From Pyrolobus fumarii 1A (GTDB taxonomy: Archaea; Thermoproteota; Thermoprotei_A; Sulfolobales; Pyrodictiaceae): a stretch of 32,000 bases of DNA. A program made the translations under genes and the position numbers. The notes beneath the pieces are model-generated. The model did not search any database. It was given only the letters and a program-made list of their open reading frames with translations, and was not told the origin of the DNA. Below are positions 3,973-21,476 of the stretch, one piece after another. How positions within the stretch are numbered: the first letter of the stretch is position 1; each line of letters begins with the position of its first letter. The stretch covers positions 1,230,001-1,262,000 of the forward strand of contig NC_015931.1 of the NCBI RefSeq assembly GCF_000223395.1. Direction: 5' to 3'.

Positions 3973-4326
3973 TTGCCCTTCGCATCGGGGTTTGTGCTAC
4001 TAACGGCAGAGTACAAGGATGAGCCGAAGAGAAGCGAGGTTAAGAAGCACCTGGAGAGTCTGGGGTTCGAGGTTTATGACATAGGCGACCCTTACCGTAT
4101 AGTCTTCTACGTGGAGGTCGACGACCTGGGCGGGTTAGAGCGGATTATAAAGGCTGCCGAGACCCACGAGGGTATCGCGAAGGCGTACATAGTCTATGGC
4201 TTCCTGGGCGACAGTGAGACTAAGAGGAGAATAAACGAGGCTCTCCTGAGTGGAGAGGCTGAGCTAGACGAGTCTACAAGGGAACTTATAGAGTGGATAC
4301 TCTCGAGGCTGAAAGCTCAGGGCTAA
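3973..4326 (+). CDS. Small cytoplasmic protein with a ferredoxin-like beta-alpha-beta-beta-alpha-beta pattern (NapD-like or stand-alone RAM/ACT-like) plus a helical tail
   Basis: 117 aa with no signal peptide. The segment FVLLTAEY...EVKKHLESLGFEVYDIG..YRIVFYVEVDDLGGLERIIKAAETHEGIAKAYIVYG follows the pattern I remember for NapD (and for RAM domains). The start is TTG 3973, with GTG 3991 as an alternative. A TATA-like 'ttgataataa' sits at 3925-3934. The 3' end overlaps the convergent napH-like gene by 4 nt. Confidence 0.5.
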   Translation: MPFASGFVLLTAEYKDEPKRSEVKKHLESLGFEVYDIGDPYRIVFYVEVDDLGGLERIIKAAETHEGIAKAYIVYGFLGDSETKRRINEALLSGEAELDESTRELIEWILSRLKAQG

Positions 4327-5258
4327 GCCTTTCTTCTCTCGTCTCCTCCTCTTGTTCTACGCCGAGGCAGGCCTATTGTAAGGGCTAGTACCCTCTCTGG
4401 ACATACTTCGACGCACCTACCGCACCTGAAGCACCGGTAATCTCTGATATCCTCACCTCTCTTCGCGATATTCGCGACATCTATTGTCATTGGGCACACT
4501 ACGCTACACAATTGGCAGAATGTGCACCTATTACTGGCTACTGTTTTTACGGTCAACAGGCTATACTTGTTCATCACGTGGCCGAATATGTTGCCCGCGG
4601 GGCATATGAACCTACACCATAGCCTCTTTACGCCGAACACTCTCTCAGCAACAATGTTGATCGCGAGCGCCGCTAGCGTTGTGGTGACCCATGCGATTGC
4701 CAGGCTTATTGTCGCCCCGGGCACGTTATACAGTATACCGACTAGCGTCGCAGCTAGCTTCGTGGTACCTGCGATCGGCGATATTGTCGTGAAGAATGGC
4801 TGAGCGAACACTACGCTAAGCAGTAGGAATGCTATCATCGCCGCAACTGGCACCAGCTTCTCTAAACGCCCGGCCTCATGTGGCCTTGCGAATCTCGGGC
4901 TTCTAGGCGTTGCCAGTTTACGCTCGAATATCGAGAATAGCATGTCCATCGGGCAGACCCACCCGCAGAAGAATCTCCCGAGCACACTATAGAGGGTGAA
5001 CACCACGAGAACAGCAATGATAGACTCTAGCGTCGCTTGGTGCGAGGCTACGAGCTGCTCGAGCCACGCGAATATATCGAGCATTGGTATCGTCTTGAGT
5101 ATCCTCGAGGAGGCTAGGCTACCCTCTATTATTGCCCCGTGGAACAACACCTGCGTGGCAAACAGCAACAGCAATGCTACCTGCATAGAGCGTCGTAGTA
5201 GCGTGTACTTGCCTCTAGGCGGCCTGCCTCTCAGGATAGCAAAGAGTTTCCTAACCAT
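4323..5258 (-). CDS. napH: NapH/MauN-type membrane polyferredoxin (quinol dehydrogenase membrane subunit, COG0348)
   Basis: About four TM helices are present, with the two family-typical CxxCP motifs (FFCGWVCPMDMLF and LWCRFICPAGNIFG). The C-terminus carries two CxxCxxCxxxCP ferredoxin motifs (CTFCQLCSVVCP, CFRCGRCVEVCP). I prefer ATG 5258 as the start: it is preceded by gagggtga and lies 11 nt after the napG stop. The track's 5321 start would overlap napG by 53 nt. Confidence 0.8.
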   Translation of the reverse strand: MVRKLFAILRGRPPRGKYTLLRRSMQVALLLLFATQVLFHGAIIEGSLASSRILKTIPMLDIFAWLEQLVASHQATLESIIAVLVVFTLYSVLGRFFCGWVCPMDMLFSIFERKLATPRSPRFARPHEAGRLEKLVPVAAMIAFLLLSVVFAQPFFTTISPIAGTTKLAATLVGILYNVPGATISLAIAWVTTTLAALAINIVAERVFGVKRLWCRFICPAGNIFGHVMNKYSLLTVKTVASNRCTFCQLCSVVCPMTIDVANIAKRGEDIRDYRCFRCGRCVEVCPERVLALTIGLPRRRTRGGDERRKA

Positions 5259-5268
5259 GCTCTCACCC

Positions 5269-6279
5269 TCAACTCTCCTCATTCTCTGTCTCGAGAGTCT
5301 CAACAACTTTCTCGGAGACAATACCCCTAATGTTTATGATATAGTCGCTATTGACTATCATCGCCCTGAACGTCGCCTTTTCAGGATTCTCGCGCTCAGT
5401 ACGAAGTATCAACTCGAGATACTCTTCATAGCTCATACCAGTATTCTTGAAGTTCTTGGCTCTCCTCTCGTACTCCTCCCTAGGCAGAACGTGAATCGCA
5501 CTACCGTTTACCGGGCAGGCCGACACACACTGCCCGCAACCAGTGCACTTCTCTGGCCTCACCCGCGTGTGGACACCCCACTCGTTAAACGTGAACTCGA
5601 AAACCTCGGTGCCGAAGGGACACGCCTTTGCACAGCTGTAGCACTCGCCGCTGTTCCAAGCCCAGCATAGATCCGGGTCTATCATAGCGACGCCCATCCT
5701 AACCTCCTTGGGCTTAACTTCTCTCAATGCACCAGTGGGGCACACAATAGTACACTTCATGCACAGGGTACACGGGTAATGCATAACATCTGGCACTATG
5801 GGCGTCCCTACACGCTCAAGCCCGCCCTCAACGCCAACGAGCCTTATAGCATAGTATCCCTCGTACAGGCAGGCATAGTAGCACAACCCGCAACGTACAC
5901 ATTTTGCATAAAAGTCTTCATCAGCACCTGGCGGTAAAAGCTCAAACCTATCCTCCTCGTAGGGCTTCACGTATGTCATGCACCGGTCGGGAAGCAAAGG
6001 ATTAGCAACACAGATCTTACCGTCACGCTCTATAAGTAGTCCAAGCGACTTGTAATACTCGTACCTTTCCCTATCACGCTCCGCATCAATCTCAAACTCC
6101 ACATAGTATACATTTTCTCCGCTTCTCTCGTTGCCGGCGCCGCGAGTCCCCTCTCCAGCCGCGAAGGAGGATGCCACGCTTCCAATACTAGCTGCTACTA
6201 CACCAGCCCCTACTGCCTTCAGAAACTCTCGACGTGAAAGGCGTGTAACACCACTTTTATCCATTACTCTTACCCCCAC
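5269..6279 (-). CDS. napG: NapG-like Tat-exported four-cluster [4Fe-4S] ferredoxin
   Basis: The N-terminus has a twin-arginine signal (SRREFLKAVGAGVVAAS). Four Cys clusters follow: CVRCGLCYYAC, CTLCMKCTIVCP, C..x7..CYSCAKACP and CTGCGQCVSACP. The gene sits directly upstream of the napH-like gene. Confidence 0.8.
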   Translation of the reverse strand: MGVRVMDKSGVTRLSRREFLKAVGAGVVAASIGSVASSFAAGEGTRGAGNERSGENVYYVEFEIDAERDRERYEYYKSLGLLIERDGKICVANPLLPDRCMTYVKPYEEDRFELLPPGADEDFYAKCVRCGLCYYACLYEGYYAIRLVGVEGGLERVGTPIVPDVMHYPCTLCMKCTIVCPTGALREVKPKEVRMGVAMIDPDLCWAWNSGECYSCAKACPFGTEVFEFTFNEWGVHTRVRPEKCTGCGQCVSACPVNGSAIHVLPREEYERRAKNFKNTGMSYEEYLELILRTERENPEKATFRAMIVNSDYIINIRGIVSEKVVETLETENEES

Positions 6280-6419
6280 ATCGCTTGTTTTTCACGACTC
6301 TCTCAATGTCGAAGGTTGTCTTGAAAACATTTCCCCAGATAGGACAGTAGTTTATCATCGGGAGGAATGTAGATGAGGATAACGAAAAGCAGGAAAGAGA
6401 CCAAAAAGTGTATTTAGTT

Positions 6420-6428
6420 AAAAAAAAA
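6420..6428 (-). terminator. T9 run 25 nt downstream of the NapA-like stop codon (archaeal oligo-T terminator candidate)
   Basis: The plus strand reads A9 at 6420-6428, which is T9 on the coding strand. It lies within a 174-nt spacer between the napA-like and napG-like genes. Confidence 0.4.
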
Positions 6429-6453
6429 GTATGTAGTGTGCGAAACTAACCGG

Positions 6454-9400
6454 TTAGTAGGCTAAGCTGTACTTGGGCTTACCAGTCTGCTCGGCCTCGG
6501 ACTTTGGTATCTCGTCGGGCCTTGCCTTCCTTATCCTCGCTGCACACGTCTTGAAGTCTGGCTGGAAGAAGTACGGCTGCACGTCGTAGTTGTCTAGTGT
6601 TAGCGCGTTGGCTAGCTTGTTCGGATCGAACCATGGCACGAACACGTAGTCGATTCTTGGGCCGCCTAGACCGGTCTTCGGGTCTAGTATGACCGCCTTC
6701 ACGGTCAGCTTACCGCGTGGGCTCTCAATCGTCACCCAGTCGCCCTTCTTGATACCGAGCTTCTCGGCTAGCTCCTTGGGTATCTCGACGTAGGCCTCTG
6801 GCTTCGACTTCATAATCTCTGGCACCTTGCCGGTCATTGTCGCCGTGTGCCAGTGCTCGACAATCCTACCTGTGGTTACCACAAGTGGATACTCCGTCGC
6901 ATCCCTCACAGTGATGACACGCCCGTCCTCAGTCCTGTATCTTAGCGCGAAGCCCGGCACCTCAGCAGGCGCTAACGCAATCTCGAAGAGCGCCTGGATG
7001 TCACCCTTGTACTTCTTTACAGCCTCGCCCCAGCTCATCGTCTCGAGTATCTTTAGCGCCTTCTCTGGGTCGCCGCTGGCTGGGTACGCCTTGTACGTCT
7101 TCACGACAGTGAATGGTCCCTTGGGCGCCGCGAATACCGATATCTTGCCCTGCTTCAATACTAGGTTAGCGTCTAGCTTCATCTCTTGTATTATCACCTC
7201 CTTGTTGATCTTGACCTCGCCAGTCTCATGGTCCATCTTGATTGGTAGCCATGGCCTCGCCCAGATGGTCATCCTACCGGTCGGCTTGGCGTAGAACACC
7301 ACATACCAGCTCTCTGGCACCTTGCTAGCCTTCTTGTACTCGATGTCATCTATCTCCTCTACGATGTGCTTGAGCACCCACTTCATGAGCACTGGGTTCT
7401 TGGCTAGGCTGCCAAGCCACTTGTGCTTGTGTATCGGGTGCACCACGTTCTCGTCGAGGCTCTCTATGTACTTCTGTATCTCCTCGGGGCTGTTCATGTT
7501 CTTAATGTCATTGTATATCTTCTTGATGACGTCTGGGTCGGGCATTAGCGGGTCGTACGGGTAGGAGTACCTGCCGCAGGACTTGTACTTCTCATACCTC
7601 GCTTTGACGCTCGGGTTAGTCGCATACTGCTCTGGCCATGGCCACCTGAAGCCAGCCTCCAGCTTCCTGAATAACTCGCGCTTCACGTAGCTGAAGTCGT
7701 AGTAGGTGTTCTTGGCTAGGCTTAGTATGTCACGGTCCCATATCCTAGTGACGAACTCCTGGTGCCACTTCTTGTCACGGCTCTTCTCCACGATGTACTG
7801 GACCCAGCTCTTGCCTGCAGCCTTGGCCGCCTTGTCGACATCCTCTGGGAAGAAGCCGCTCACAAGACCCTTCGCAATTATACCCTCGTCTTCAAGCGCC
7901 TTACCGACCATCGCGAAGATTATGTGGTCAGCTACGGCCTCGCCCGGCGGTGTTATCAGGTACCTTGCTACGCTGTAGCGCCTCTCGCTACAACCGTACT
8001 TGAACTCCTTCTCGGACCAGGCCGCCGCCGGGAGTATCAGGTCTGCGACATCGGTGGTCCTTGTTGGGTAGATGTCGCTCACTATAACGAATGGGAACGC
8101 GGGATCATCGTCGTGCGGCTTTACCATACCAAGCCTGAACTTGTATACATTTGGTAGGCTGTGACCTGGGTTCGTCTCAGCGATCCACACTACCTTGATG
8201 ATACCCGCGCCAATCCTGCGGAATAGCTCAACAGCGTGTGGACCCGGAACCGGGTGCACATATACCTTCTCGATCTCCTTTTTGATCTGCTCTGGCGAGT
8301 AGCCACGCTCCTTTAGGTATTCCTCGGTGAGCTTCCTCCAGATCTTCTCCACCTGCTCCCTTGCTGCCTTCTTGGCGATCAGCCTACCGTATGGCAGGAC
8401 GTGAGCCAGGCCACCCTGGTCTCTAATGCCGCCACAGGCGTTCGGCTGACCAGTCAAGCTCCAAGTGCCGGAACCATACTTGCCAATCTTGCCTGTGAGC
8501 GCTAGTAGGTTGATTATGCTGTTAACAGCGTGCACACCCTGTATCTTCTGGTTGATGCCCATAGTCCAGAAGACTAGGATCCTGCCCCTCGCTATCCACT
8601 TCGCAGCAAGCCTAAGCGCCTCTACCGGGTCGATCTCAATGAATGGCGTGTCCTCCATCTTCACCTTGTCTGGGCTCAACTCGCCAGCCTTGATCAGCTT
8701 CTCAGCAGTCTCCTTGTTGATGAGTGGCTTCTGGTCGCCGAAGAGTATCTTAGCCATAACCTCCGGCTTGTAGAACTCAAGGAACTTGAGGTATAGCGCG
8801 AATCCTCTCCACCAGTCCTTCTCTATCTCCTCCTCACTCGTGTACTTCTTACCGATGCTCGGGTACACCTTGTAGTTGGCAGCGTTGCTGGCAGTGGTAC
8901 CCATGTCCCAGACCTTATTCAAGTCGCCAAGGTTGTTCAGCGGTGTGTTGTAATCCTTGAGTGCCCAGGTCTTCGCGGTCTCAACGGGTATCGCGAAGTC
9001 CGCGTGCCTCTTGAGCCACTTTAGGTCGATGTACTCGCCCTTGCACTCAACCTTACCCTCCTTGACGTCAATCACCTTACACTTGTCTAGCTCGAACGCC
9101 ACTATGTGGGCGAGCGTGTGGAGAAGCGCAACGTCCATACTCCAACGGATTGGCAGCCATAGGTCGGCAATGGTACCGCTCCTGGTCTTCCTGGGGTCAG
9201 CTAGTATCACCTTGGCATTCGGGTTTTTCTTCTTCACCTCAGAGATGCGGCCGAAGAGTATTGGATGCGCCTCAGCAGTATTGCTACCGATTATCATGAA
9301 TGTATCTGCATGCACGCCCAGATCGGGCTCCGGCACGTCTATGTAGTCGTAGCTTACCTCAGGCTCATCAGCACCAAAGCTGGATATGTAACCGCCAACG

Positions 9401-10206
9401 GCGCTAACCATACAGAGCCTTGGGTTACCGTCGAGGTTGTTGGTGTGTATACCGCCCTTAGTCAGCTTGTTGATAACGTAGCTCTCCTCGGTGCCAAGCT
9501 GACCACTTCCATAGTAGGCGAAGCTGTGTGGACCATACTTGTTCAGAGCATACTTTAGCACCGCGGTTAGGAACTTGATCGCGGTGTCCCAGTCGATCTC
9601 GACGAAGTTCTCCTTGACGTGCTCCTCTACGGTCTTGGTTGCATCTAGGTTCTTGCTTACCTGGCGCTTCTTGACCCTAGGCGCCTCGGGTATCTCCTCG
9701 GGGGTTATTGGTGGCCTGTTCTTACCTGGGATTATCCAGTCCTTGTTGACTAGAGGTTTCTTGAAGCGTAGCTCCATAGCCCTCTTGTTACCGCCGTAGC
9801 CTAGAGCCTTGTGGATGTAGAAGGCCTTGACGCAGAGGGCACCCCTGTTAACCGGGTAGTTCGGGTCGCCGATAACCGCGAGAATGTCCTTAGCCATGCC
9901 AGTAGCCGGGTCCATTACTACCTGGAGCTTCACGCCACAACCAGTACCGCAGTACCTGCAGGGACCGAGCAGAAGGGTGGATATCTTCGGCCTGGCGGTT
10001 GTCGTCGCGGTCTCTGTTGGAGTTGCACCCACGGTTGTCGTGATAGTCTTAGTCTGGGTTAGAACCTCTGTAAGTGTGGTCGTTACAGTCTCGACGATTT
10101 TCTCCTTGCGACCGGTCATATAGTAGGTCGCGGCTCCGCCCACAGCTGCTAGCGCGGCACCAAGGGCAATTGCTTTTAGAATATCACGACGCGTTTGGTC
10201 GGGCAA
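6454..10206 (-). CDS. napA: NapA-like (periplasmic-nitrate-reductase-type) Mo/W-bis-pyranopterin oxidoreductase catalytic subunit; Tat signal/anchor, Thr-rich linker, unusually long at 1250 aa
   Basis: A twin-arginine motif is present (TRRDILKAIALGAALAAV). The [4Fe-4S] motif CRYCGTGCG (9934-9960) is followed by ...CVKAF. The motif GNPRLCMVSAVGGYISSFGADEP contains a Cys (codon 9412-9414) at the NapA Mo-ligand position. Other NapA-like segments are IIGSNTAEAHPILFGRI, SLTGQPNACGG, EHWHTATMTGKVPE and FVPWFDPNKLANALTLD. All resemble NapA signatures as I remember them. The start is TTG 10206, preceded by aggaggggt. Confidence 0.85.
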   Translation of the reverse strand: MPDQTRRDILKAIALGAALAAVGGAATYYMTGRKEKIVETVTTTLTEVLTQTKTITTTVGATPTETATTTARPKISTLLLGPCRYCGTGCGVKLQVVMDPATGMAKDILAVIGDPNYPVNRGALCVKAFYIHKALGYGGNKRAMELRFKKPLVNKDWIIPGKNRPPITPEEIPEAPRVKKRQVSKNLDATKTVEEHVKENFVEIDWDTAIKFLTAVLKYALNKYGPHSFAYYGSGQLGTEESYVINKLTKGGIHTNNLDGNPRLCMVSAVGGYISSFGADEPEVSYDYIDVPEPDLGVHADTFMIIGSNTAEAHPILFGRISEVKKKNPNAKVILADPRKTRSGTIADLWLPIRWSMDVALLHTLAHIVAFELDKCKVIDVKEGKVECKGEYIDLKWLKRHADFAIPVETAKTWALKDYNTPLNNLGDLNKVWDMGTTASNAANYKVYPSIGKKYTSEEEIEKDWWRGFALYLKFLEFYKPEVMAKILFGDQKPLINKETAEKLIKAGELSPDKVKMEDTPFIEIDPVEALRLAAKWIARGRILVFWTMGINQKIQGVHAVNSIINLLALTGKIGKYGSGTWSLTGQPNACGGIRDQGGLAHVLPYGRLIAKKAAREQVEKIWRKLTEEYLKERGYSPEQIKKEIEKVYVHPVPGPHAVELFRRIGAGIIKVVWIAETNPGHSLPNVYKFRLGMVKPHDDDPAFPFVIVSDIYPTRTTDVADLILPAAAWSEKEFKYGCSERRYSVARYLITPPGEAVADHIIFAMVGKALEDEGIIAKGLVSGFFPEDVDKAAKAAGKSWVQYIVEKSRDKKWHQEFVTRIWDRDILSLAKNTYYDFSYVKRELFRKLEAGFRWPWPEQYATNPSVKARYEKYKSCGRYSYPYDPLMPDPDVIKKIYNDIKNMNSPEEIQKYIESLDENVVHPIHKHKWLGSLAKNPVLMKWVLKHIVEEIDDIEYKKASKVPESWYVVFYAKPTGRMTIWARPWLPIKMDHETGEVKINKEVIIQEMKLDANLVLKQGKISVFAAPKGPFTVVKTYKAYPASGDPEKALKILETMSWGEAVKKYKGDIQALFEIALAPAEVPGFALRYRTEDGRVITVRDATEYPLVVTTGRIVEHWHTATMTGKVPEIMKSKPEAYVEIPKELAEKLGIKKGDWVTIESPRGKLTVKAVILDPKTGLGGPRIDYVFVPWFDPNKLANALTLDNYDVQPYFFQPDFKTCAARIRKARPDEIPKSEAEQTGKPKYSLAY

Positions 10207-10265
10207 AGCTTACCCCTCCTGCTGCGCAACTATTCCTAATTCCACATGACACATAACGATGCTTC

Positions 10266-10275: not shown

Positions 10276-10360
10276 CATTATCTGAAAAGTTTTCGGTCCC
10301 TACATGATTAAGGCTCGTTAACGACGACTAGCTACGATCCAATGTGGGGTCTGCCCAGAG

Positions 10361-15063: not shown

Positions 15064-16629
15064 ATGCGTATCCTCTATTCTCATCTTTTTACCATCCTTC
15101 TCATACTGGTATTCACGCAGTATGCTTTTGCGTCTCTGATATCGAACTATCCGGGTCAACCCATAGCGTATGAACTCGTGATCAACTTTACACACGCCTC
15201 AGAATCACAAGAGTGGCGCGTTCACATTGAACTTGTAGGATACAACGCAAATTTCACGTGTTCATCGTCTCTGAAGCCTAACCCGCTCTACATGCAGACT
15301 AGGAGTATCTCCCCTCGACTAATCGCCACGTCGTTATACTATGTGCTTGACAGCGTGTGCCCAAAAGTGATAGATGTTTTGAAGAGCGCGAAAAACGGCT
15401 TACTGGAGCTTGTGATGACAGCACCCAAAGACTATGTTGTAAGGAGCGCGCTAGACTGGCGGGGTTACGGGGCACCCGGCGGGCCATACCTACTACCGGT
15501 CACCCTTTTCAAGAGGTACTACATGTATGACGGCATTGTGGTCGCCTATACTAGGGTCTACGAGACGATCGACAATCCGTCGTTGAACCTGAGTATAGTT
15601 CTGCCGAGAGGGTTTAACACTGCACAGCTTGATGCTGTTGTCGAGACTGTAACCGCAGTTAGAAACGGGCTGAGCAGGTGGCTTGGCCCCAGTCCTAGGA
15701 GCCCCGTTGTAATCGTGATCGCTTCGCCAGAGGAGAGTGACTACATGCCTCCCGGTACCGCGCATAGTACAGGAGCCATGCTCTACATAAAACCTGACAT
15801 TGATGTCGACCTGGCTGGTCTAATCCATGCTGTTGCGCATGAATCTGCTCATGGTTGGTTCAACTTTGGGCTATTGTACGGCGACTTTGGGTTCCAAGAG
15901 GGTCTTGCAGAGTTCCTTGCGTTGAACGCGCTCCGTGTATATGCGCCAAGGTTGTTCGGGATAGCAGAACGCTATGTGTTATTCTCGTTGAAGAGCGACG
16001 ATAGGTACGCGACGTGGCTCAAGGTTCATGCTGCCATATGGTACTCTGTGATATACGCGTGCAACGAGAGTTTATACACAGATCTCTTACGTGGTTTGTT
16101 CCGCCAGGCTCTCGCGGAGAACGGCAAGTACGTTACATTGTTCGATTTGATTAACTCCCTTGTGGCACACGCACCACAATATTGTAGACAGAGGCTCAGG
16201 TCTCTGTTAGGCCCTACTCTACTATCCGCTGCCGAGGGTAGTAGCAGCTGGCCGTTCGTGAACACTACTGTGATAGAGGATGCCCTTAGGCTGCTCAACA
16301 GTCCAGTTTCTTCAAACTTCACCGTTAACGGGACGTGTAGAGGACAGCCGCTAGAGGAGCCACCAGCGAGGATTAGCCATACACGCACAGGTGTCAATGA
16401 AATGCCACGCGAAAAAGTTACCCTCAACAGCACCTCAACCGAGAAGAGCGTTACACACGCCCCACAATCGCCTACTCGCACACAGAACGTTGAGAGGGGC
16501 GGACCAGCTGGCAGTTTCTCATTAGAGCCTAGCAGTTCTCTTTACGGGCAAATACCATATCTCGCGCTACTAGCTTTTATAGCGGTGTTTAGCATTTTTG
16601 CGTTTCGTGCGAGAATAAACCGTGAATGA
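15064..16629 (+). CDS. Membrane-anchored extracellular gluzincin (M1-like, peptidase clan MA) zinc metalloprotease, N-glycosylation-sequon rich
   Basis: An N-terminal signal/TM segment is present. The motif HAVAHESAHGWFNFGLLYGDFGFQEGLAEF contains HExxH (15838-15852) followed by a downstream QEGLA. This resembles the M1 HExxHx18E / NEGFA arrangement, but the spacing is 3 residues shorter. There are many NxS/T sequons. The C-terminal TM is IPYLALLAFIAVFSIFAF, with the tail RARINRE. Confidence 0.65.
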   Translation: MRILYSHLFTILLILVFTQYAFASLISNYPGQPIAYELVINFTHASESQEWRVHIELVGYNANFTCSSSLKPNPLYMQTRSISPRLIATSLYYVLDSVCPKVIDVLKSAKNGLLELVMTAPKDYVVRSALDWRGYGAPGGPYLLPVTLFKRYYMYDGIVVAYTRVYETIDNPSLNLSIVLPRGFNTAQLDAVVETVTAVRNGLSRWLGPSPRSPVVIVIASPEESDYMPPGTAHSTGAMLYIKPDIDVDLAGLIHAVAHESAHGWFNFGLLYGDFGFQEGLAEFLALNALRVYAPRLFGIAERYVLFSLKSDDRYATWLKVHAAIWYSVIYACNESLYTDLLRGLFRQALAENGKYVTLFDLINSLVAHAPQYCRQRLRSLLGPTLLSAAEGSSSWPFVNTTVIEDALRLLNSPVSSNFTVNGTCRGQPLEEPPARISHTRTGVNEMPREKVTLNSTSTEKSVTHAPQSPTRTQNVERGGPAGSFSLEPSSSLYGQIPYLALLAFIAVFSIFAFRARINRE

Positions 16630-16693: not shown

Positions 16694-17572
16694 ATGTCGT
16701 ACACTACTTCTAAGCCACTGGTAGCATATTACGTTTGTAAGTTTAGGTGTCCCCTTTTCACGCTCACCCGCGAGGCATACACCTTAGCAATGAATACTCC
16801 GTTCTCCGAGGATGCCTGTTTTAATGGCGCGTTCTCCAGTTTGGCTATTCGCATCCTCAGGGTTAACATATCCGTGAACGATGGGTTCACAGAAATCTGG
16901 GCGAGAGTTAGTGGCAAAAAGCAGTTTGTCGAGAGCTATGTAAAGGCGCTTACAAAGGCTAAGGGCATTTACTTTCAACTGATATATGCTAACAGCTTTG
17001 GAAGGATATTGCGCATTCTAGTGCCGAGAGAGTATTGTAAGAATTGCATCGCTAGCCTGGGAGGCGACAACGGGTGGTGCTGCTGTCCTCTACTCTCTGC
17101 CCCAGTAGGGTCAATGGCCAAGACGACAATCATAACTCCCTGCGGCGCGGTATACGAGCTTGTGGTGTCGAAGAGAAGTGTGCTAGAGAAGCTCGAGAAA
17201 ACATGTTGGGACTGCGAGCTCATACTAACACATGCTGTCGACGAGTACGACTATATGCTGACTGAGAAGCAGGAAAGGATTCTCATCGAAGCCTATTTGC
17301 GCGGCTATTTCAGCTTCCCCCGCAAGATTAGCATGAAGGACCTTGCTAAGGAGCTTGGCATGAGCGTCTCGTCGCTAGCCGAACTCCTTAGGAAGGCTGA
17401 GGCTAAGGTGGTTGAAGCGTTTGTTAGACACGAGCTGCCGCATTATCTAGTCGAGCATATAATCAGGAGAGGATCTGAGACTAGCGACATTGTAGGTAAA
17501 CACGCTAGGCGCACACCCAAGGATACTCACAAAGCCGTTGAAGAGGATCGGGCTATACTGGTCAGGAAGTAA
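16694..17572 (+). CDS. Transcriptional regulator with an N-terminal Cys-rich sensor-like domain and a C-terminal HTH_10 (Bat/DmsR/NarO-type) DNA-binding domain
   Basis: The C-terminal segment LTEKQERILIEAYLRGYFSFPRKISMKDLAKELGMSVSSLAELLRKAEAKVVEAF is the classic bacterio-opsin-activator-type HTH. The N-terminal ~190 aa hold clustered cysteines: CKFRCP, CKNC, WCCCP, CWDC. Confidence 0.75.
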   Translation: MSYTTSKPLVAYYVCKFRCPLFTLTREAYTLAMNTPFSEDACFNGAFSSLAIRILRVNISVNDGFTEIWARVSGKKQFVESYVKALTKAKGIYFQLIYANSFGRILRILVPREYCKNCIASLGGDNGWCCCPLLSAPVGSMAKTTIITPCGAVYELVVSKRSVLEKLEKTCWDCELILTHAVDEYDYMLTEKQERILIEAYLRGYFSFPRKISMKDLAKELGMSVSSLAELLRKAEAKVVEAFVRHELPHYLVEHIIRRGSETSDIVGKHARRTPKDTHKAVEEDRAILVRK

Positions 17573-17700: not shown

Positions 17701-19101
17701 GTGTGGCTCTGGGCGTTGATTGTGACGAGGGGCCGCATAGTCAAGATTCACGTTATTGTTGCATACACATTGGTCGCCCTGGTGTTGCTATGGGGTGTCT
17801 TGCTCTCCCCGCCATTTAGAGAGCTTCGTGTAGCGCTTGGGTTTCCTGCTGAGTTGCCCGGCTCGAGGTTTAACGGATGGGCTGCTGAGATTATAGCAAG
17901 TGATATAGAAGATGCGAGTTTTTACCTTGCAAGGGTTTCTCACTATTATCACGTTGTGTTTGCCGCTCTACTCTACGCGTCTCTAGTTCTCAGCGCCGGT
18001 GTACTCGGGGACCGCATACCTCTGAACACGCTGACCTTGGCTCTAGTCGGTGCTTTGATGACGGCGGTTGGTGGTATTGGTTACGCGTATTTTGCCAGGT
18101 TGTTCTATCTTCACGGTTTATTCATAGCTGGGCTCGCGTTTCTCTTCGCGGCTGGCGTGCTTGTCGCACAGAGTCTCTGGAAACCGCGAAGTGAGATTGA
18201 GATCGGGTTGTTTGCTTCTGTACTCTTGTTGCTTATTGGCGGTGTCGTGGGCGGGTATGTTGGAAGTAGCTACATGGACGATAGCCTCGCAGATGCGTTT
18301 GTGAAGGCGAAGATAGCATCCAGGTTCGATCCGGATCTTGGCGAGCACGTGGAAGTTTGGAGAGCCATGACGGGCCACGCGCATGCAATGGTTACACTTG
18401 TTCTCACCGGCTCTATGCTCGTTGGGTTTGCAGCTACCGGGCCGCGGTGGGCTAGGCCGAGATTGGCGAAGCTCAGCCTCTGGGCCGTAACGCTCTCCCT
18501 GGCTGCGACTGCTGTAGGCTCCTATCTTGTCTGGCCTTTAGGCGGCATCGCACACAAGATAATCACACCATCTAGTCTGGTGCTGCTCATTGCCAGTCTT
18601 CTAGCGGCTTTTGCTCTTAGAGCGCCCCCGCCGATGACCGCTGATGGCGCATTGGTACACGGGTTACGTGTAGGTCTGGTCTCAATGTGGCCTCTTGTGG
18701 TGGTGCCAGGGGCTATCGTCGCTGTTAGCCTACACAAGCCCGTCTTCTTTGACCCGCCTATGCGTGACCCCTCCCGCGACTGGGCCGAGCTAGCCTACAG
18801 TATCGGCCATTGGCATATACTACTAGCAGCATGGGGTGTTACACTGCTAATCACTCTGCTAGCTAGCATAGGTAGGAGTAGGCTAGCCGTACTGTCAGCA
18901 TGGCTGGCTGTAGTTGGCTTCCTGGTGGCTAGCGCAGGGGTAAACCTCTACGCTCTCACAGCGCCGCCGGGGGCCTATAGCCCCAACCCTTACGATAATC
19001 TCTGGGTTCGTCTCCTCATAGAGCCGGGATTGACAATCATGGCCTTGGCAGCGATACTTGGGTATGTCGAGGCTCTACGCTGGGCACTCAACAAGCAATG
19101 A
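17701..19101 (+). CDS. Uncharacterised polytopic membrane protein (~12 TM) with paired histidine motifs in TM helices
   Basis: I count twelve hydrophobic stretches by eye. The His pairs are HYYH (aa 81-84, start of TM2), GHAHAM (aa 225-230, start of TM6) and GHWH (aa 369-372, codons 18808-18816, TM10). Single His residues occur at 138, 285, 320 and 345. The start is GTG. I recognise no family. Confidence 0.7.
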   Translation: MWLWALIVTRGRIVKIHVIVAYTLVALVLLWGVLLSPPFRELRVALGFPAELPGSRFNGWAAEIIASDIEDASFYLARVSHYYHVVFAALLYASLVLSAGVLGDRIPLNTLTLALVGALMTAVGGIGYAYFARLFYLHGLFIAGLAFLFAAGVLVAQSLWKPRSEIEIGLFASVLLLLIGGVVGGYVGSSYMDDSLADAFVKAKIASRFDPDLGEHVEVWRAMTGHAHAMVTLVLTGSMLVGFAATGPRWARPRLAKLSLWAVTLSLAATAVGSYLVWPLGGIAHKIITPSSLVLLIASLLAAFALRAPPPMTADGALVHGLRVGLVSMWPLVVVPGAIVAVSLHKPVFFDPPMRDPSRDWAELAYSIGHWHILLAAWGVTLLITLLASIGRSRLAVLSAWLAVVGFLVASAGVNLYALTAPPGAYSPNPYDNLWVRLLIEPGLTIMALAAILGYVEALRWALNKQ

Positions 19102-19239
19102 GCTTCTACACCACTACCTGACAACAAGCACGTACAACTGGAGCTATATGAGGTGTAGCGAGTTGACCTGGCTTTACTCTCGTGCATCACATACTACGTA
19201 CGAGTGGAGAAAATAGAGGGGTCGCGGTTCCGTCCCTTT

Positions 19240-19515
19240 CTACTCTCCTAGTATCTCCTTTACCTCCTGCCTGCCCCTTTCCAGTTCCCTAGCCTGCTCC
19301 GGATCCACCTGTAGGAGGAGATGTAGGAACTCGCCAACGTGCGTTTTCTCCTCACGCGCTATATCCAGGAAGACTCTCCTTATACCCTCATCCTCTATCT
19401 GGGACGCCAATTCTTCATAGAGGTTTATTGCCTCAAGCTCCGCAATTATGGCGGTTCTCAATGCCTGCGCAACCGTCATTTTATGCTCATGCTGCTCGAC
19501 TTGTTTCTGAGTCAA
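19240..19515 (-). CDS. Small two-helix ferritin-like protein (EncFtn/rubrerythrin-like half-ferritin)
   Basis: ALRTAIIAELEAINLYEELA ... FLDIAREEKTHVGEFLHLLLQVDP shows the helix-1 Glu plus helix-2 ExxH di-iron pattern. It resembles encapsulated-ferritin sequences as I remember them. The track start is TTG 19515; ATG 19479 (MTVAQAL...) is an alternative. Confidence 0.65.
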   Translation of the reverse strand: MTQKQVEQHEHKMTVAQALRTAIIAELEAINLYEELASQIEDEGIRRVFLDIAREEKTHVGEFLHLLLQVDPEQARELERGRQEVKEILGE

Positions 19516-19704
19516 GGCGTTCCCCTCGACCTCCTAACTAGTCCGCCTTGCAAAGCTATAGCTCTTTCCTTCGCCATTCGGGCTACATCAAAGCCTAAAT
19601 TCCCGTCTATTACTCGAAGCCCTTCTACTTCCAACTTGTTCGGCTACACGAGACGACGTTACCACATACCATGTTTCAAATCCCATGGTTAGAATTCCTA
19701 ACTT

Positions 19705-19724
19705 ATACTCTCTAGTAGGAGTAT
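19705..19724 (+). promoter_or_regulatory. Inverted repeat ATACTC-N8-GAGTAT upstream of HAO paralog 2, followed by TTAAAT boxes
   Basis: ttATACTCtctagtagGAGTATga gives 6/6 matches, or 7/8 when extended by two bases on each side. 'ggttaaatg' (19751-19759) and 'cattaaatc' (19768-19776) follow. The second box lies ~27 nt upstream of GTG 19803, which suggests a leaderless or short-leader mRNA. Confidence 0.3.
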
Positions 19725-19802
19725 GAGCCGGTTAATGGTCTTTGCTTTATGGTTAAATGAGAATAAGCATTAAATCTGCCTACTAACGGTCTTCGTTCAC
19801 AG

Positions 19803-21476
19803 GTGTTGAAGGGTATGGAAGCAAGGCAAATTCTCGTGTTTGCTATTGTCGCGGTAATCGTTGCCGCCGCAGCATACTTCGCTGGCTATAGCGCTGCCCC
19901 GACAAAGACAGTGACATCCACGGTGGAGTCGGTAGCTACTTTGACAGTGACGAAAACGCAAATGCTTACAGAGACTTACTCGGAGATCCGCACGGTGACA
20001 GTGACTACAACACATACGGTTGTAAAGCGAGTCGGCTTCATGCCAAAACAGATAAACGTCCAGGAGGAGGTCAAGAAGATTATGAATAAGCTATCGCCGC
20101 AGAGCAGGGCGTGCGTAAACTGCCACATGAGATACACTCCCGGCATAGTCGCCGACTGGCTGATGAGCAAGCACGCGCGTGTAACGCCAGCCGAGGCCTG
20201 GAAGAAGCCGGAGCTTCAGCGTGAGATATCCGCCCTACCACCGGAGAACATGAGGGATTACATCGTCGGCTGTTACGAGTGCCACGGCCTAAACCCGGAC
20301 AAGCACCCAGATACCTTCGAGCACTTTGGCTTTAAGATCCACACTATAGTGACGCCGCCGGATTGCGCCGTCTGTCACCCCGTGGAGGTCGAGGAGTACG
20401 GCAGGAGCGTGAAGGCACACGCTCACAACAACCTGGTGAAGAACCCGGTGTACATGCTGCTCGTCAACGCCTCAACACAGATAAACATGTTTGGCATCAA
20501 GGCGGGCTACCATCTGGCTGTTGAGAGCGCCTGCTTCGCCTGCCACGGTGCGAAGGTAGAGTTCGTCGGCCTGAAGGAGATCCAGGTGGGCAATCTCAAG
20601 CTAAAGGTGCCAGTCTACAAGGGCTGGCCGAACCACGGTGTGGGCAGAGTAAACCCGGATGGCAGCGAGGGCTCTTGTACAGCATGCCACCCGAGACACG
20701 CCTTTAGCATCGAGGTTGCACGCAGCCCATACACCTGCTCCCAGTGCCACCTAGACCCAGACGTCCCAGCCTTCGACGTCTGGAAGGAGAGCAAGCACGG
20801 CAACATATTCCTAGCACAGTGGAAGACTTACAACATGACTGCTGTGCCATGGGTGCCTGGCAGAGACTTCCGCGCGCCATCCTGCGCGGTCTGCCACTTC
20901 TCGCTACTAGTCGATAAGAATGGCAACGTGATAGCTCCCAGGACGCACGACGTAGGCTCAAGGATATGGATTAGGCTCTTCGGCGTCTATGCGCACCCGC
21001 AGCCGAAGATTGGCGAGACGTGGAAGATTAAGAACAAGGATGGTCTGCCGCTCCCATACTCGCTGCTGGACGCCGAGCCAGCCTGGGACTATGTGATCAG
21101 CAAGGAGGAGATGGCGAAGAGACGCGAGCAGATGATAAAGATTTGTAGTGCGTGCCACTCGGAGAACTACGCTAGAGAGAGGATAGCGTGGTTCGAGGGC
21201 GTTGTCAACGAGACTAACAAGGCGATACTGGCGTCCACCCAGCTACTCGTAGAGGCATGGAAGAAGGGTGTCGCCAAGGGCCTGCTGACCGGCGACAACC
21301 CGTTCGACGAGTACATCGAGAGACTGTGGATAGAGACTTGGCTATTCTACGCTAACAGCATCAGATATGGCGCCGCGATGAACGGCCCAGACTGGACGAC
21401 GTTCAAGAGAGGCTGGTACCAGCTAACCAGGACGCTCGGCGAGATGCAGATGCTAATAGAGCTGCACGGAAAGTAA
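19803..21476 (+). CDS. Octahaem c-type cytochrome of the HAO family with an N-terminal TM anchor and Thr-rich linker (paralog 2)
   Basis: Eight CxxCH motifs are present: CVNCH, CYECH, CAVCH, CFACH, CTACH, CSQCH, CAVCH, CSACH. The HAO block is YKGWPNHGVGRVNPDGSEGSCTACHPRHAFSIEVARSPYTCSQCHLDPDVPAFDVWKESKHGN. The anchor is ILVFAIVAVIVAAAAYFAGY and the Thr/Val linker spans 19899-20018. The start is GTG 19803 or ATG 19815. Confidence 0.85.
   Translation: MLKGMEARQILVFAIVAVIVAAAAYFAGYSAAPTKTVTSTVESVATLTVTKTQMLTETYSEIRTVTVTTTHTVVKRVGFMPKQINVQEEVKKIMNKLSPQSRACVNCHMRYTPGIVADWLMSKHARVTPAEAWKKPELQREISALPPENMRDYIVGCYECHGLNPDKHPDTFEHFGFKIHTIVTPPDCAVCHPVEVEEYGRSVKAHAHNNLVKNPVYMLLVNASTQINMFGIKAGYHLAVESACFACHGAKVEFVGLKEIQVGNLKLKVPVYKGWPNHGVGRVNPDGSEGSCTACHPRHAFSIEVARSPYTCSQCHLDPDVPAFDVWKESKHGNIFLAQWKTYNMTAVPWVPGRDFRAPSCAVCHFSLLVDKNGNVIAPRTHDVGSRIWIRLFGVYAHPQPKIGETWKIKNKDGLPLPYSLLDAEPAWDYVISKEEMAKRREQMIKICSACHSENYARERIAWFEGVVNETNKAILASTQLLVEAWKKGVAKGLLTGDNPFDEYIERLWIETWLFYANSIRYGAAMNGPDWTTFKRGWYQLTRTLGEMQMLIELHGK

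Follow-up and report, generated by a model that had tools for sequence, protein, structure and literature searches.

A long-type Nap module and two HAO-family octahaem cytochromes, candidates for nitrate-to-ammonium respiration in Pyrolobus fumarii

Gene content of the interval

Pyrolobus fumarii is known to respire H2 with nitrate, yielding ammonia. We analysed a window of 32 kb from the chromosome of strain 1A (the whole stretch of DNA considered here), part of which had been read, in an original prediction, as a self-contained respiratory island leading from nitrate through nitrite to ammonium. Every feature listed in that prediction was recovered in place; the features are given below with the evidence for each.

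3973–4326 (+): NapD-like chaperone candidate, 117 aa (Pfam NapD below threshold, BLAST)
4323–5321 (−): NapH-like membrane quinol dehydrogenase ferredoxin subunit, 332 aa (NCBIfam NapH)
5269–6279 (−): NapG-like Tat-exported poly-ferredoxin, 336 aa (NCBIfam NapG, TAT_signal domain)
6454–10206 (−): long-type NapA-like catalytic subunit, 1250 aa (NCBIfam NapA, PDB match, NJ tree)
10303–10325 (+): CATGATTAA-N6-TTAACGAC, in the napA/g319 divergent promoter region (word count)
10361–11320 (+): g319, archaeal Nap-associated cytoplasmic protein, annotated as 308 aa (synteny, predicted fold)
11487–12170 (−): monohaem cytochrome c Pyrfu_1333 (NCBIfam NF041895, Pfam Reeler, one CxxCH)
12409–14988 (+): octahaem HAO-family cytochrome Pyrfu_1334, annotated as 837 aa (Pfam PF13447, eight CxxCH)
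15064–16629 (+): 521-aa protein with an HExxH motif (HESAHGW), signal peptide and C-terminal TM (motif and TM segments from sequence)
16694–17572 (+): Cys-rich HTH_10 transcription regulator, 292 aa, 11 Cys (Pfam HTH_10, 64.6 bits)
17701–19101 (+): 12-TM protein, annotated as 459 aa, seven invariant His, no Cys (sequence, predicted fold)
19803–21476 (+): octahaem cytochrome Pyrfu_1339 (PDB 4QO5, eight CxxCH)

Plausible c-type haem motifs occur in exactly three ORFs, one with a single CxxCH and two with eight each; no NapB-, NapC- or NrfH-like di- or tetrahaem ORF was found in any frame of the window, in agreement with the predicted absence of these subunits. Since the GC content of the interval (0.527) is equal to that of its flanks (0.530 and 0.545) and no att-like repeat accompanies the neighbouring tRNA-Leu, the region is not a compositional island. 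The 15064–16629 protein matched no family in Pfam or NCBIfam, and its gene lies inside the interval with no visible link to respiration.

A long-type Nap module

The 6454–10206 product, which matches “Nitrate reductase [Pyrolobus fumarii 1A]” at 100% identity, carries a Tat-type motif (TRRDILK) followed by a Thr-rich linker, and its N-terminal [4Fe-4S] motif CRYCGTGCG occupies residues 83–91. Its stretch GNPRLCMVSAVGGY aligned to GNPRLCMASAVGGY of Desulfovibrio desulfuricans NapA, the stretch with the Mo-ligand Cys140; the corresponding Cys of the Pyrolobus protein lies within GNPRLCM, and the Cys-Met and QPNACGGxRD catalytic stretches of the D. desulfuricans enzyme are also kept. A Tat-exported, NapA-like Mo enzyme is thus confirmed here, differing from the 723-aa NapA by four insertions that total ~500 aa. 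NapA was its top NCBIfam family at 397 bits, a score below the cut-off of 904, as all Nap HMM scores at this locus fall below the curated equivalog cut-offs, and its best PDB match was D. desulfuricans NapA (429 bits). With PhsA at 33, TtrA at 20.5 and ArrA at 19.8 bits, these same results rule out the polysulfide, thiosulfate, tetrathionate or arsenate reductase identity that the original prediction had set against its own reading.

The genes for NapG- and NapH-like proteins follow napA in the predicted order A-G-H. NapG was the top NCBIfam match of the former (92 bits, cut-off 269), whose gene is syntenic with napG of archaeal and bacterial long-nap loci at 34–64% identity; NapH was that of the latter (147.5 bits, cut-off 234), which has 4–5 TM segments in a TM scan, two CX3CP motifs and syntenic orthologues at 32–60% identity. 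A further gene, missed by the original prediction, is also assigned to the module on sequence and position: Pfam NapD was the top match of the 3973–4326 protein and of three archaeal orthologues, below threshold (E 0.004–0.055), and BLAST against a bacterial NapD in the same position gave E 5e-5. This gene is convergent to napH in Pyrolobus, whereas it follows napH co-directionally in relatives. Across napA, the g319 family adjoins napA or follows napD in 5/5 archaeal loci when the flank is included (the window, L001, L081, L082 and L083), and it numbers just 23 clusters in a set of 1.84 billion representative proteins. Its AlphaFold model (pLDDT 93) matched PTP-fold phosphatases in Foldseek (probability 1.0, target TM 0.5–0.69), with a predicted N-terminal PTP/DUSP-like fold, invariant Cys80 and Cys87, and no CX5R arginine in that fold. 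That g319 might be a maturation factor is a guess.

In a genome scan, Pyrolobus NapA shared 38–42% identity with NapA from the long napAGHD loci in Desulfurivibrio, Nitrospirota and Kryptonia vs 27–33% with the other NapA loci that the scan returned, and the bacterial long NapA clade was its sister in an NJ tree. On this basis we assign it to the “long”, NapB-less type found in Desulfurivibrio alkaliphilus, Nitrospirota and Kryptonia. The epsilonproteobacterial connection proposed earlier is not supported, with these as the nearest NapA and no Campylobacterota among the named best matches of either protein searched.

Very probably, judging from family and active site, this Nap is the nitrate reductase of P. 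fumarii. NapA orthologues also occur in Hyperthermus and Ignicoccus, neither of which is known to grow on nitrate; together with a family score so far under the equivalog cut-off, this could be taken to mean that the ~500 aa of insertions retarget the enzyme to another oxyanion or role in vivo, leaving nitrate to another Mo enzyme. Such retargeting seems to us highly improbable, as the enzyme hardly differs from crystallised NapA along its active-site stretches, napG, napH and napD accompany the gene, and NrfA/ONR-type genes adjoin long napA in two bacterial loci. Published work bears on both sides: napAGHD of D. alkaliphilus is highly expressed on nitrate and not during S disproportionation; the orthologous locus of Pyrodictium delaneyi (Pyrde_1154-1156) was detected in the proteome, and extracts had nitrate reductase activity, but Nap abundance was unchanged between nitrate and iron growth, as retargeting might have it.

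Membrane-anchored Pyrfu_1333, placed in cluster 38 by Kletzin (2015), matched NCBIfam NF041895 at 98.7 bits, above the cut-off of 42, as well as Pfam Reeler. Its reeler/spondin-like “choice-of-anchor V” domain is joined through a Thr-rich linker to a TM anchor at the C terminus. Because long napA is immediately preceded, in 10 bacterial loci, by the gene of a homologue with one CxxCH (30–41% identity), Pyrfu_1333 is probably, with somewhat better than balanced support, the electron donor to NapA in place of NapB. Homologues also lie within 1–3 kb of nap in three archaeal loci, and in one bacterial long-nap locus a small tetrahaem cytochrome fills the same slot.

Octahaem cytochromes and the genes between them

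Both octahaem proteins match exactly the HAO-family sequence block quoted in the original prediction, and as paralogues they are 36–44% identical. Pyrfu_1334 has a Sec signal, a C-terminal coiled coil of ~190 aa, a TM anchor and an Asp-His pair (GYDHP) after haem 5. It scored 86.6 bits with Pfam PF13447, and 278 bits with IhOCC vs ~76 bits with HAO and HAOr in the PDB; its orthologues, the Igni_1359/Hbut_1389-type proteins of Hyperthermus, Pyrodictium, Pyrofollis and Ignicoccus, share 55–74% identity with it. Pyrfu_1339 has an N-terminal TM anchor and a Thr-rich linker, with Asp-Val where HAO has Asp-His; a near full-length alignment of 616 bits to PDB 4QO5 (IhOCC, Igni_0955) identifies it by sequence as the IhOCC orthologue. 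The suggestion that no characterised archaeal system resembles this one does not hold, for the census of archaeal cytochromes c had already filed both proteins in HAO cluster 4, noting the coiled coil of Pyrfu_1334, and the IhOCC structure has been solved.

Bacterial long nap is adjoined either by an NrfA/ONR-type gene (L085, L090) or by an HAO-type octahaem cytochrome (L089, L091), the latter 31% identical to Pyrfu_1334; L091 also holds NiFe hydrogenase genes. This either/or pattern supports a nitrite-reductase role, and chance hardly explains it. In archaea such adjacency is unconserved, being absent in Ignicoccus islandicus and GCA_013540595, and in Hyperthermus ~9.5 kb of housekeeping genes separate the napA end from the octahaem gene. 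Against the same role, neither paralogue is restricted to known nitrate respirers: both types are core in Pyrodictiaceae and Ignicoccus irrespective of nitrate use, Ignicoccus having NapA with both types and Hyperthermus NapA with the coiled-coil type.

These distributions would suit a scheme in which Nap reduces nitrate while the octahaem pair are general extracytoplasmic carriers or reductases (of thiosulfate, sulfite, polysulfide or Fe(III)) connecting the periplasmic hydrogenase to several terminal reductases, their proximity to nap being coincidental. Several reports agree with it: native hydrogenase can reduce Igni_0955, for which an electron-relay role was proposed; an octahaem cytochrome of P. 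delaneyi, Pyrde_0496, placed with sulfur-reductase-like genes, is present in cells grown on nitrate and on Fe(III) (ferrihydrite) alike; a third HAO-cluster member (Pyrfu_0788 type) sits in a complex that shows a 60-fold rise on Fe(III); and sulfur-species reduction has been proposed for HAO-family proteins outside the N-cycle clade. We nevertheless consider this scheme unlikely, if far from negligible, because P. fumarii needs a nitrite reductase that forms ammonium, the census found no NrfA in it (among archaea, NrfA is in Methanoperedens only), and IhOCC, an octahaem cytochrome with no P460 cross-link, is reported to reduce nitrite. Tyr-less HAOs are known to reduce nitrite and hydroxylamine. 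Weighing the other way, the type strain of P. delaneyi is reported to denitrify. On sequence and synteny, the case that one or both cytochromes form ammonium from nitrite in vivo is evenly balanced, with Pyrfu_1334 the prime candidate and Pyrfu_1339 the second.

Between the octahaem genes, the 12-TM protein had no match in Pfam, NCBIfam or PDB sequences, but its model (pLDDT 88) gave haem-copper oxidase subunit I, CcoN or qNOR as the top 27 Foldseek matches (probability 0.99–1.0, TM 0.40–0.56), so that the predicted fold resembles subunit I of haem-copper oxidases and NOR. The IhOCC paper reportedly discusses a detoxifying role in Ignicoccus, which is not known to respire nitrate. Similarly, the octahaem pair could here be detoxifying or partly reducing enzymes (converting nitrite to NO, much as the Tyr-less anammox HAOr of Kuenenia yields NO, not ammonium, from nitrite, or scavenging hydroxylamine and NO), with the 12-TM protein and its invariant His pattern handling NO and ammonium formed by another route, such as a cytoplasmic assimilatory-type nitrite reductase or a hydroxylamine reductase. 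This seems to us rather improbable: ammonia is the end product of P. fumarii, the 12-TM protein has no sequence similarity to NOR, and some archaea have its family but not these cytochromes, the homologues of Archaeoglobus sulfaticallidus and of an ENA contig having none adjacent.

An HTH_10 gene also adjoins the 12-TM homologue in another locus (L087), and the Pyrolobus regulator may act on the downstream 12-TM gene; haloarchaeal tblastn matches to it mostly cover the HTH part only. The monohaem cytochrome, regulator and 12-TM protein assigned to the island are all real, but the last two look like a separate module. Their recurrence elsewhere without cytochromes, together with the unconserved Nap–octahaem adjacency, speaks against a self-contained island. 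Two related words weakly point to a possible shared cis-element: CATGATTAA-N6-TTAACGAC and the contiguous CATGATTAACGAC at 12282–12294, in the Pyrfu_1333/Pyrfu_1334 divergent region, occur nowhere else in the 32 kb (expected 0.26 and 0.57) and were not found in orthologous regions of relatives.

A candidate route and its known counterparts

Gene content, family assignments, orthology and synteny make Nap and the two octahaem cytochromes the best candidates for nitrate-to-ammonium respiration in P. fumarii. From these we infer electron-transfer steps, cytochrome substrates and a trimeric state, in a scheme with two neighbouring yet separately transcribed modules, long-type Nap and HAO-family octahaem cytochromes. 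Electrons from the quinol pool would enter NapH in the membrane and the Tat-exported FeS protein NapG, and Pyrfu_1333 would probably hand them to the NapB-less NapA. On the outer side of the cytoplasmic membrane NapA would then form nitrite from nitrate; in the cytoplasm, the NapD-like and g319 proteins would assist its maturation and export. Octahaem trimers, held above the membrane on a coiled-coil stalk (Pyrfu_1334) or a Thr-rich stalk (Pyrfu_1339), would convert nitrite and any hydroxylamine to ammonium. No quinol-oxidising partner for them is encoded in the window; their electrons could come directly from a periplasmic hydrogenase, or from the membrane tetrahaem cytochrome Pyrfu_1102 encoded elsewhere. 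We give an even chance to the region being, in this way, the outward-facing part of H2-driven nitrate ammonification.

Of the original prediction, the Nap-type enzyme is supported, and host physiology and an IhOCC orthologue favour the nitrate–nitrite–ammonium sequence; the epsilonproteobacterial link and the self-contained setting are not supported. All parts of the cluster have been catalogued or studied in close relatives before: published accounts cover Pyrodictium Nap, the HAO cluster of P. fumarii itself and the IhOCC structure. The closest bacterial counterpart of Pyrolobus NapA is in the clade of D. alkaliphilus napAGHD, likewise without napB, an operon for which the “electron donor is unknown”, and the cluster can plausibly be regarded as a variant of Nap-plus-HAO ammonification.

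Gene content of the region and lineage of its NapA

All genes listed in the original prediction (napA-, napG- and napH-like genes, a monohaem cytochrome, two 8 x CxxCH cytochromes, an HTH_10 regulator and a 12-TM protein) were present in the window, and the Nap module is larger than was described there, also comprising a NapD-like gene, the monohaem cytochrome gene Pyrfu_1333 and g319, an archaeal Nap-associated gene beside napA. The claimed absence of NapB, NapC and NrfH was borne out, because beyond the three cytochrome genes no frame of the window contains an ORF with a credible c-type haem motif. The flanks are housekeeping in nature (PheRS, GTPase, tRNA-Leu, peptidase M48 and cobalamin genes). 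“Island”, the term first applied to the region, is the wrong word, since its GC content equals that of the flanks and the tRNA-Leu gene carries no att-like repeat.

Features of the region (coordinates in the window, strand, description)
3741–3828, plus, tRNA-Leu (anticodon TAG), 145 bases upstream of the NapD-like gene
3973–4326, plus, NapD-like ORF, 117 aa
4323–5321, minus, napH-like gene
5269–6279, minus, napG-like gene
6454–10206, minus, napA-like Mo-enzyme ORF, 1250 aa
10361–11320, plus, g319, 319-aa ORF
11487–12170, minus, monohaem cytochrome Pyrfu_1333, one CxxCH
12409–14988, plus, octahaem cytochrome Pyrfu_1334, 8 x CxxCH
15064–16629, plus, 521-aa ORF with HExxH motif (HESAHGW), signal peptide and C-terminal TM
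16694–17572, plus, Cys-rich HTH_10 protein
17701–19101, plus, 12-TM protein
19803–21476, plus, octahaem cytochrome Pyrfu_1339, 8 x CxxCH

A protein recorded as “Nitrate reductase [Pyrolobus fumarii 1A]” matches the Mo-enzyme ORF at 100% identity, and the top NCBIfam family of this ORF is NapA (397.2 and 380.9 bits; NF010055/TIGR01706), followed by Fdh-alpha (299), PhsA (33), TtrA (20.5) and ArrA (19.8 bits). PDB matches gave a similar ranking, with 274–429 bits for NapA (the top being D. desulfuricans NapA, 429), 79–212 for FDH and 31 for Psr/Phs. We did not file the protein as a canonical NapA, because its scores lie far under the equivalog cut-offs of 904 and 930.55 bits; the HMM match is broken up by four insertions, which in the alignment with D. 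desulfuricans NapA account for the extra ~500 residues. The NapA features themselves are in place: a Tat-type motif (TRRDILK), an N-terminal CxxCxxxC cluster motif (the [4Fe-4S] motif CRYCGTGC, residues 83–90), the Mo-ligand Cys followed by Met (GNPRLCMVSAVGGY, aligning with GNPRLCMASAVGGY of D. desulfuricans NapA) and a conserved active-site Arg stretch (SLTGQPNACGGIRD in the window, SLTGQPNACGGVRD in D. desulfuricans). A Thr-rich linker follows the Tat signal.

Archaeal orthologues from Hyperthermus, Pyrodictium, Ignicoccus islandicus and MAGs, in loci mostly recovered by protein look-up since the genome scan listed few, share 66–78% identity with the window NapA, the 78% belonging to a partial P. 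delaneyi MAG sequence. Next comes a bacterial clade of long NapA (~1100 aa; 38–42% identity over 92–98% of the length), carried by Desulfurivibrio alkaliphilus, Dissulfurispiraceae, Nitrospirota/Thermodesulfovibrionales and “Ca. Kryptonium”; other NapA among the loci listed in the genome scan of relatives reached 27–33%. In a rough NJ tree (no bootstrap, no non-Nap outgroup), the archaeal clade is sister to the bacterial long clade. The NCBIfam and PDB scores do not place the Mo enzyme with Psr, Phs, Ttr or Arr enzymes, the outcome named beforehand as contrary to a NapA assignment. The proposed epsilonproteobacterial link of Nap did not hold up by identities or by the tree: the nearest relatives outside archaea are of the long bacterial type, and it is this D. 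alkaliphilus-type membership that makes the epsilonproteobacterial analogy not the relevant one. In D. alkaliphilus, expression of a napAGHD operon of this kind was reported to be high with nitrate; it encodes a “novel type of NapA”, is devoid of napB and has an unknown electron donor (Thorup et al. 2017, PMC5516251).

A 100-aa ORF at 3544–3846 overlaps the tRNA-Leu gene and is probably spurious. The 521-aa ORF, located between a cytochrome gene and the HTH_10 gene, gave no family match in Pfam or NCBIfam; it may encode a surface zinc metallopeptidase. A 700-base gap (19102–19802) separates the 12-TM gene from Pyrfu_1339, unusually long for this compact genome; it contains just short overlapping ORFs (117 and 91 aa) and gave no match in Rfam. 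Tag numbering indicates that a small gene, Pyrfu_1338, may be annotated there.

The monohaem cytochrome and the accessory Nap genes

Pyrfu_1333 contains a reeler/spondin-like “choice-of-anchor V” domain (98.7 bits) and a Thr-rich linker ahead of a C-terminal TM, and had been filed as cluster 38 in the archaeal cytochrome c census (Kletzin et al. 2015). Homologues with 30–41% identity and one CxxCH each stand immediately upstream of long napA in 10 bacterial loci (L003–L006, L008, L084, L085 and L089–L091), and in each of the three archaeal loci with flanking sequence a homologue lies within 1–3 kb of nap. Given this conserved position upstream of long napA, Pyrfu_1333 is likely the electron donor to NapA and a functional replacement for NapB, a role assigned here from synteny. 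No paper linking a monohaem cytochrome to the long Nap type was found in the literature searched. In a Bacteroidota MAG (L007, 9499–9870), a 123-aa tetrahaem cytochrome c is encoded directly upstream of long napA, and no monohaem of the reeler type; its occupation of the monohaem slot suggests that small cytochrome donors are interchangeable.

The accessory proteins are similarly divergent in score: NapG (92 bits against a cut-off of 269) and NapH (147.5 against 234) fall under their cut-offs, each with its own family ranked top, and the 117-aa protein reaches 15.1 bits against a threshold of 28 for Pfam NapD, again the top-ranked family. We regard this protein as NapD-like from several lines of comparison. 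Orthologues directly follow napH in Hyperthermus, a Pyrodictiaceae MAG and the assembly GCA_013540595; NapD is the top Pfam family in all four archaeal proteins, each sub-threshold; the same slot in bacterial long-nap loci holds bona fide NapD above the Pfam threshold (31 and 29 bits); and pairwise BLAST against bacterial NapD gave an E of 5e-5. The order A-G-H-D recurs in three archaeal and at least six bacterial long-nap loci, and in P. fumarii the NapD-like gene is inverted and thus convergent to napH.

The g319 gene accompanies napA in five of five archaeal loci (homologues in relatives at L001 6404–7348, L081 8876–9841, L082 8908–9927 and L083 16441–17394), and its family, comprising 23 clusters among 1.84 billion representative proteins, is archaea-only. 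A confident model shows an N-terminal PTP/DUSP (dual-specificity-phosphatase) fold in which invariant Cys80 and Cys87 (C-x6-C) are found where the catalytic CX5R is expected, the CX5R arginine being missing. Any part it plays in maturing NapA is conjecture.

Octahaem cytochromes and their relation to Nap

Both Pyrfu_1334 and Pyrfu_1339 belong to the HAO family by eight CxxCH motifs in HAO spacing and by similarity to solved structures (IhOCC, NeHAO, KsHAO, HAOr and HDH), with PF13447 scores (86.6 and 55 bits) that exceed the cut-off of 21.9. Pyrfu_1339 matches PDB 4QO5 (IhOCC, Igni_0955) at 616 bits over nearly its full length, while Pyrfu_1334 reaches 278 bits with IhOCC and is of the Igni_1359/Hbut_1389 type (55% identity with the I. 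hospitalis orthologue, 72% with that of Hyperthermus). Pyrfu_1334 and Pyrfu_1339 are old paralogues (36–44% identity), and both types are widespread in Pyrodictiaceae and Ignicoccus. Together with Pyrfu_0788 they had been placed in “cluster 4 HAO”, and a coiled-coil extension was noted (Kletzin et al. 2015). No CxxCK motif in the window's cytochrome ORFs and no PF02335 (Cytochrom_C552) match was found, so that neither is classed as NrfA/ONR. The few organisms named among the best 120 homologues included Thermoproteota, Planctomycetota, Nitrospinota, Desulfuromonadales and Poribacteria and others; Campylobacterota were not among these few, in a set without an epsilon-Hao reference.

The paralogues differ after haem 5, where the alignments show an Asp-His pair (GYDHP) in Pyrfu_1334, as in NeHAO and HAOr, and Asp-Val in Pyrfu_1339 and IhOCC. 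In alignments of the octahaem proteins with NeHAO, KsHAO and HAOr, the C-terminal region in which the cross-linking Tyr would lie could not be matched by sequence, whether a single protein, a 22-sequence profile or a bacterial intermediate was used. Published work describes IhOCC as a nitrite-reducing octahaem cytochrome without P460 haem, and orthology to it implies that Pyrfu_1339 would likewise lack the cross-linking Tyr and P460; HAOs that lack this Tyr either reduce nitrite and hydroxylamine or produce NO.

Topologically, Pyrfu_1334 combines a cleavable-looking signal, a ~190-aa coiled coil and a C-terminal TM, and Pyrfu_1339 has an N-terminal TM and a Thr-rich linker. Because of such TM segments, the coiled coil and the Thr-rich linkers, NapA and the three cytochromes Pyrfu_1333, Pyrfu_1334 and Pyrfu_1339 are probably anchored to the membrane at its outer face. 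An earlier remark on “archaeal anchors” was therefore sound, given the TM and stalk features of the cytochromes and the linker of NapA. The Pyrfu_1334 coiled coil would form a stalk of three strands, in keeping with the HAO trimer. The window encodes no donor to the octahaem cytochromes. Candidates are a periplasmic hydrogenase (Igni_0955 is reducible by native hydrogenase) and the cluster 6 membrane tetrahaem cytochrome Pyrfu_1102, whose Hyperthermus homologue Hbut_1391 is two tags from octahaem Hbut_1389 (Kletzin et al. 2015).

The octahaem genes might be neighbours of nap without sharing its pathway. In Ignicoccus islandicus napA stands with g319 alone, in GCA_013540595 no cytochrome except the monohaem lies within 10 kb, and in Hyperthermus the Pyrfu_1334 orthologue starts ~9.5 kb past the end of napA, after housekeeping genes. 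Neither Hyperthermus nor Ignicoccus is known to grow on nitrate, and the species Hyperthermus butylicus is not known to use it. The locus of H. butylicus (L081) is a loose respiratory neighbourhood, with a NiFe hydrogenase small-subunit gene (660–2180) ~8 kb upstream of nap and porphobilinogen synthase, a haem biosynthesis gene (19928–20944), between nap and the octahaem gene. Also speaking against a link, a P. delaneyi octahaem cytochrome, of possible kinship to the window proteins, was detected in both nitrate and Fe(III) growth. A shared pathway is favoured, however, by the formation of ammonia from nitrate in P. fumarii and by the distribution of NrfA, which among archaea was found in Methanoperedens alone (Kletzin et al. 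2015).

The most telling point in favour of the link comes from bacterial long-nap loci, where nap has beside it one or the other of two types of candidate nitrite reductase. L085 and L090 carry an NrfA/ONR-type protein (7 CxxCH and 1 CxxCK, Cytochrom_C552), and L089 (Kryptonium) and L091 carry HAO-type octahaem proteins (8 CxxCH, GPDHP, WHHEGRR), 27–31% identical to the window proteins in L089 and 31% identical to a window protein in L091. The gene orders are mono-napAGHD-Rieske-cyt b-octahaem in L089, “mono” being the Pyrfu_1333-type gene, and octahaem-mono-napAGHD-NiFe hydrogenase small and large subunits in L091. By analogy, the HAO-type octahaem cytochrome would carry out the nitrite step, for which this either/or placement of NrfA or HAO is the best support here, and the pattern favours the Asp-His type, Pyrfu_1334, as the nitrite-step candidate. 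L091 looks like a compact H2-to-nitrate/nitrite gene cluster, an arrangement that would mirror the H2/nitrate metabolism of P. fumarii; the whole octahaem-to-hydrogenase set (221–10742, GCA_024449705.1) is on a single strand, with a 90-aa ORF in the napD slot.

Within the window, the Pyrfu_1334 gene starts 238 bp from Pyrfu_1333 on the opposite strand. No exact word of at least 10 bases was common to seven intergenic regions. The words CATGATTAA and TTAACGAC each occur just twice in the 32 kb, forming a contiguous 13-mer at 12282–12294 and a version split by 6 bases at 10303–10325, in the divergent promoter regions Pyrfu_1333/Pyrfu_1334 and napA/g319; they are not conserved in related genomes. 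This gapped 13-mer is a weak hint that the two gene pairs may be co-regulated.

Adjacent genes, a joint reading and known systems

The genes for the HTH_10 regulator and the 12-TM protein seem to form a separate unit. The 12-TM family comprises ~60 clusters, in which every organism-named match is archaeal, with homologues in Pyrodictium, Archaeoglobus sulfaticallidus, Korarchaeota and Methanodesulfokora. At the two further loci inspected, a 197–199-aa membrane protein precedes the 12-TM gene, an HTH_10 gene lies alongside in one, and cytochromes lie in neither. That partner (L086 7395–7994, L087 7406–7999), polytopic and without a family, nearly abuts the 12-TM gene; it is missing from the P. 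fumarii window, where the HTH_10 gene is upstream instead. We rejected the 12-TM protein as the pathway's quinol dehydrogenase and left it out of the mechanism, because no cytochrome genes accompany its homologues in other archaea. The HTH_10 regulator and the 521-aa ORF likewise have no place in the proposed mechanism.

Pfam, NCBIfam and PDB sequence searches returned no match for the 12-TM protein, and none of 23 family members matched Pfam COX1 even at E<=10. Its AlphaFold model (pLDDT 88) nevertheless matches just HCO subunit I, CcoN, bo3 and qNOR folds (prob 0.99–1.0, TM 0.40–0.56). Seven His are invariant, in helices II, IV, VI (HxH), VIII and X (HxH), whereas canonical HCO His lie in II, VI, VII (HH) and X (HxH), so that the protein fits at II and X alone; there the helix II His and the helix X HxH are placed as HCO haem ligands. 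The family may be a very divergent branch of the HCO superfamily. The Cys-rich HTH_10 protein was dropped as a NarO-like denitrification regulator; tblastn against haloarchaeal plasmids gave mostly HTH-only matches and the single match with 80% coverage was not beside nar genes.

Nitrate respiration to ammonium by P. fumarii, at up to 113 °C, has been on record since 1997, and the literature searched contained no paper assigning enzymes or these genes to that process; the locus supplies concrete, testable candidates. Each part has been catalogued before (the nitrate reductase annotation, Pyrodictium Nap, the HAO cluster, the cluster-38 monohaem and the IhOCC structure), and the belief that Nap and HAO-like cytochromes were undescribed in such archaea was incorrect, as Pyrodictium Nap, HAO cluster 4 and IhOCC are published. 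A joint reading, which we put forward tentatively and consider rather doubtful as a whole, is that of an unrecognised cross-domain ammonification module, composed of a long NapB-less NapA, a reeler-fold monohaem as dedicated donor, NapGHD and an HAO-type octahaem replacing NrfA, driven by H2 both in P. fumarii and in L091, where NiFe hydrogenase genes lie next to it, with the 12-TM protein as founding member of a very divergent HCO/NOR-like family acting on an N-oxide or O2. If true, it would supply the “unknown electron donor” that the novel NapA type has lacked so far and identify the enzymes behind nitrate ammonification above 100 °C. More broadly, the monohaem companion of long NapA and its flanking by either NrfA/ONR or HAO suggest that the monohaem cytochrome is the missing donor of long Nap in sulfide-oxidising and subsurface bacteria (Desulfurivibrio, Nitrospirota, Kryptonia) and that HAO-family proteins have a wider role as ammonifying nitrite reductases, which matters for predicting DNRA from genomes without nrfA.

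Among known systems, the Ignicoccus enzyme IhOCC is closest to Pyrfu_1339. Its host I. hospitalis is known to grow by S0 reduction alone; the IhOCC paper reportedly credits Ignicoccus with a nitrate reductase and two octahaem cytochromes. P. fumarii, in contrast to I. hospitalis, ammonifies nitrate. Both proteins are membrane-associated and have the same eight haem motifs and the same Asp-Val (PDB 4QO5; Parey et al. 2016). Within the same family Pyrodictiaceae, P. delaneyi has a Nap-like complex (Pyrde_1154–1156) and nitrate reductase activity in extracts (Demey et al. 2017; Kashyap & Holden 2021). Unlike P. fumarii, its type strain is reported to denitrify, with no report of ammonification, its proteome shows a nitric oxide reductase to be more abundant on nitrate, and no octahaem gene is reported near its nap, unlike in the window.

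The Nap plus epsilon-Hao systems of Nautilia and other Campylobacterota (“reverse HURM”) follow the same logic, a periplasmic Nap without NrfA coupled to an HAO-family octahaem for which nitrite and hydroxylamine reduction has been proposed or demonstrated in vitro (Hanson et al. 2013, PMC3701875; Haase et al. 2017). The window differs in its NapA lineage, in having no NapC/NrfH/CycB-type quinol dehydrogenase and in membrane-tethered octahaem proteins that group with IhOCC and uncharacterised bacterial HAO-likes. Nap-plus-HAO ammonification in the window is plausible and would share this logic, with parts from other lineages and different electron-entry proteins.

The long nap loci of D. alkaliphilus, “Ca. 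Kryptonia” and Nitrospirota have in common with the window the napA-G-H-D set without napB or napC, the monohaem reeler-type cytochrome gene, the link to nitrate ammonification and a NapA of ~1100–1250 aa with the same insertions (38–42% identity). The archaeal NapA, in contrast, exceeds the bacterial one by ~140 aa and bears a Thr-rich stalk behind its Tat signal; in the window napD is inverted and archaea-specific g319 separates the monohaem gene from napA; and the archaeal monohaem protein, unlike its bacterial counterpart, has a C-terminal TM anchor. In D. alkaliphilus, NrfA is presumed to catalyse the second step (Thorup et al. 2017, PMC5516251). NrfA-based DNRA has the same overall reaction and cytochrome superfamily as the octahaem route, whereas the window is without the CxxCK haem motif and NrfH; in L085 and L090, the NrfA/ONR-type genes occupy the slot equivalent to that of the window octahaem.
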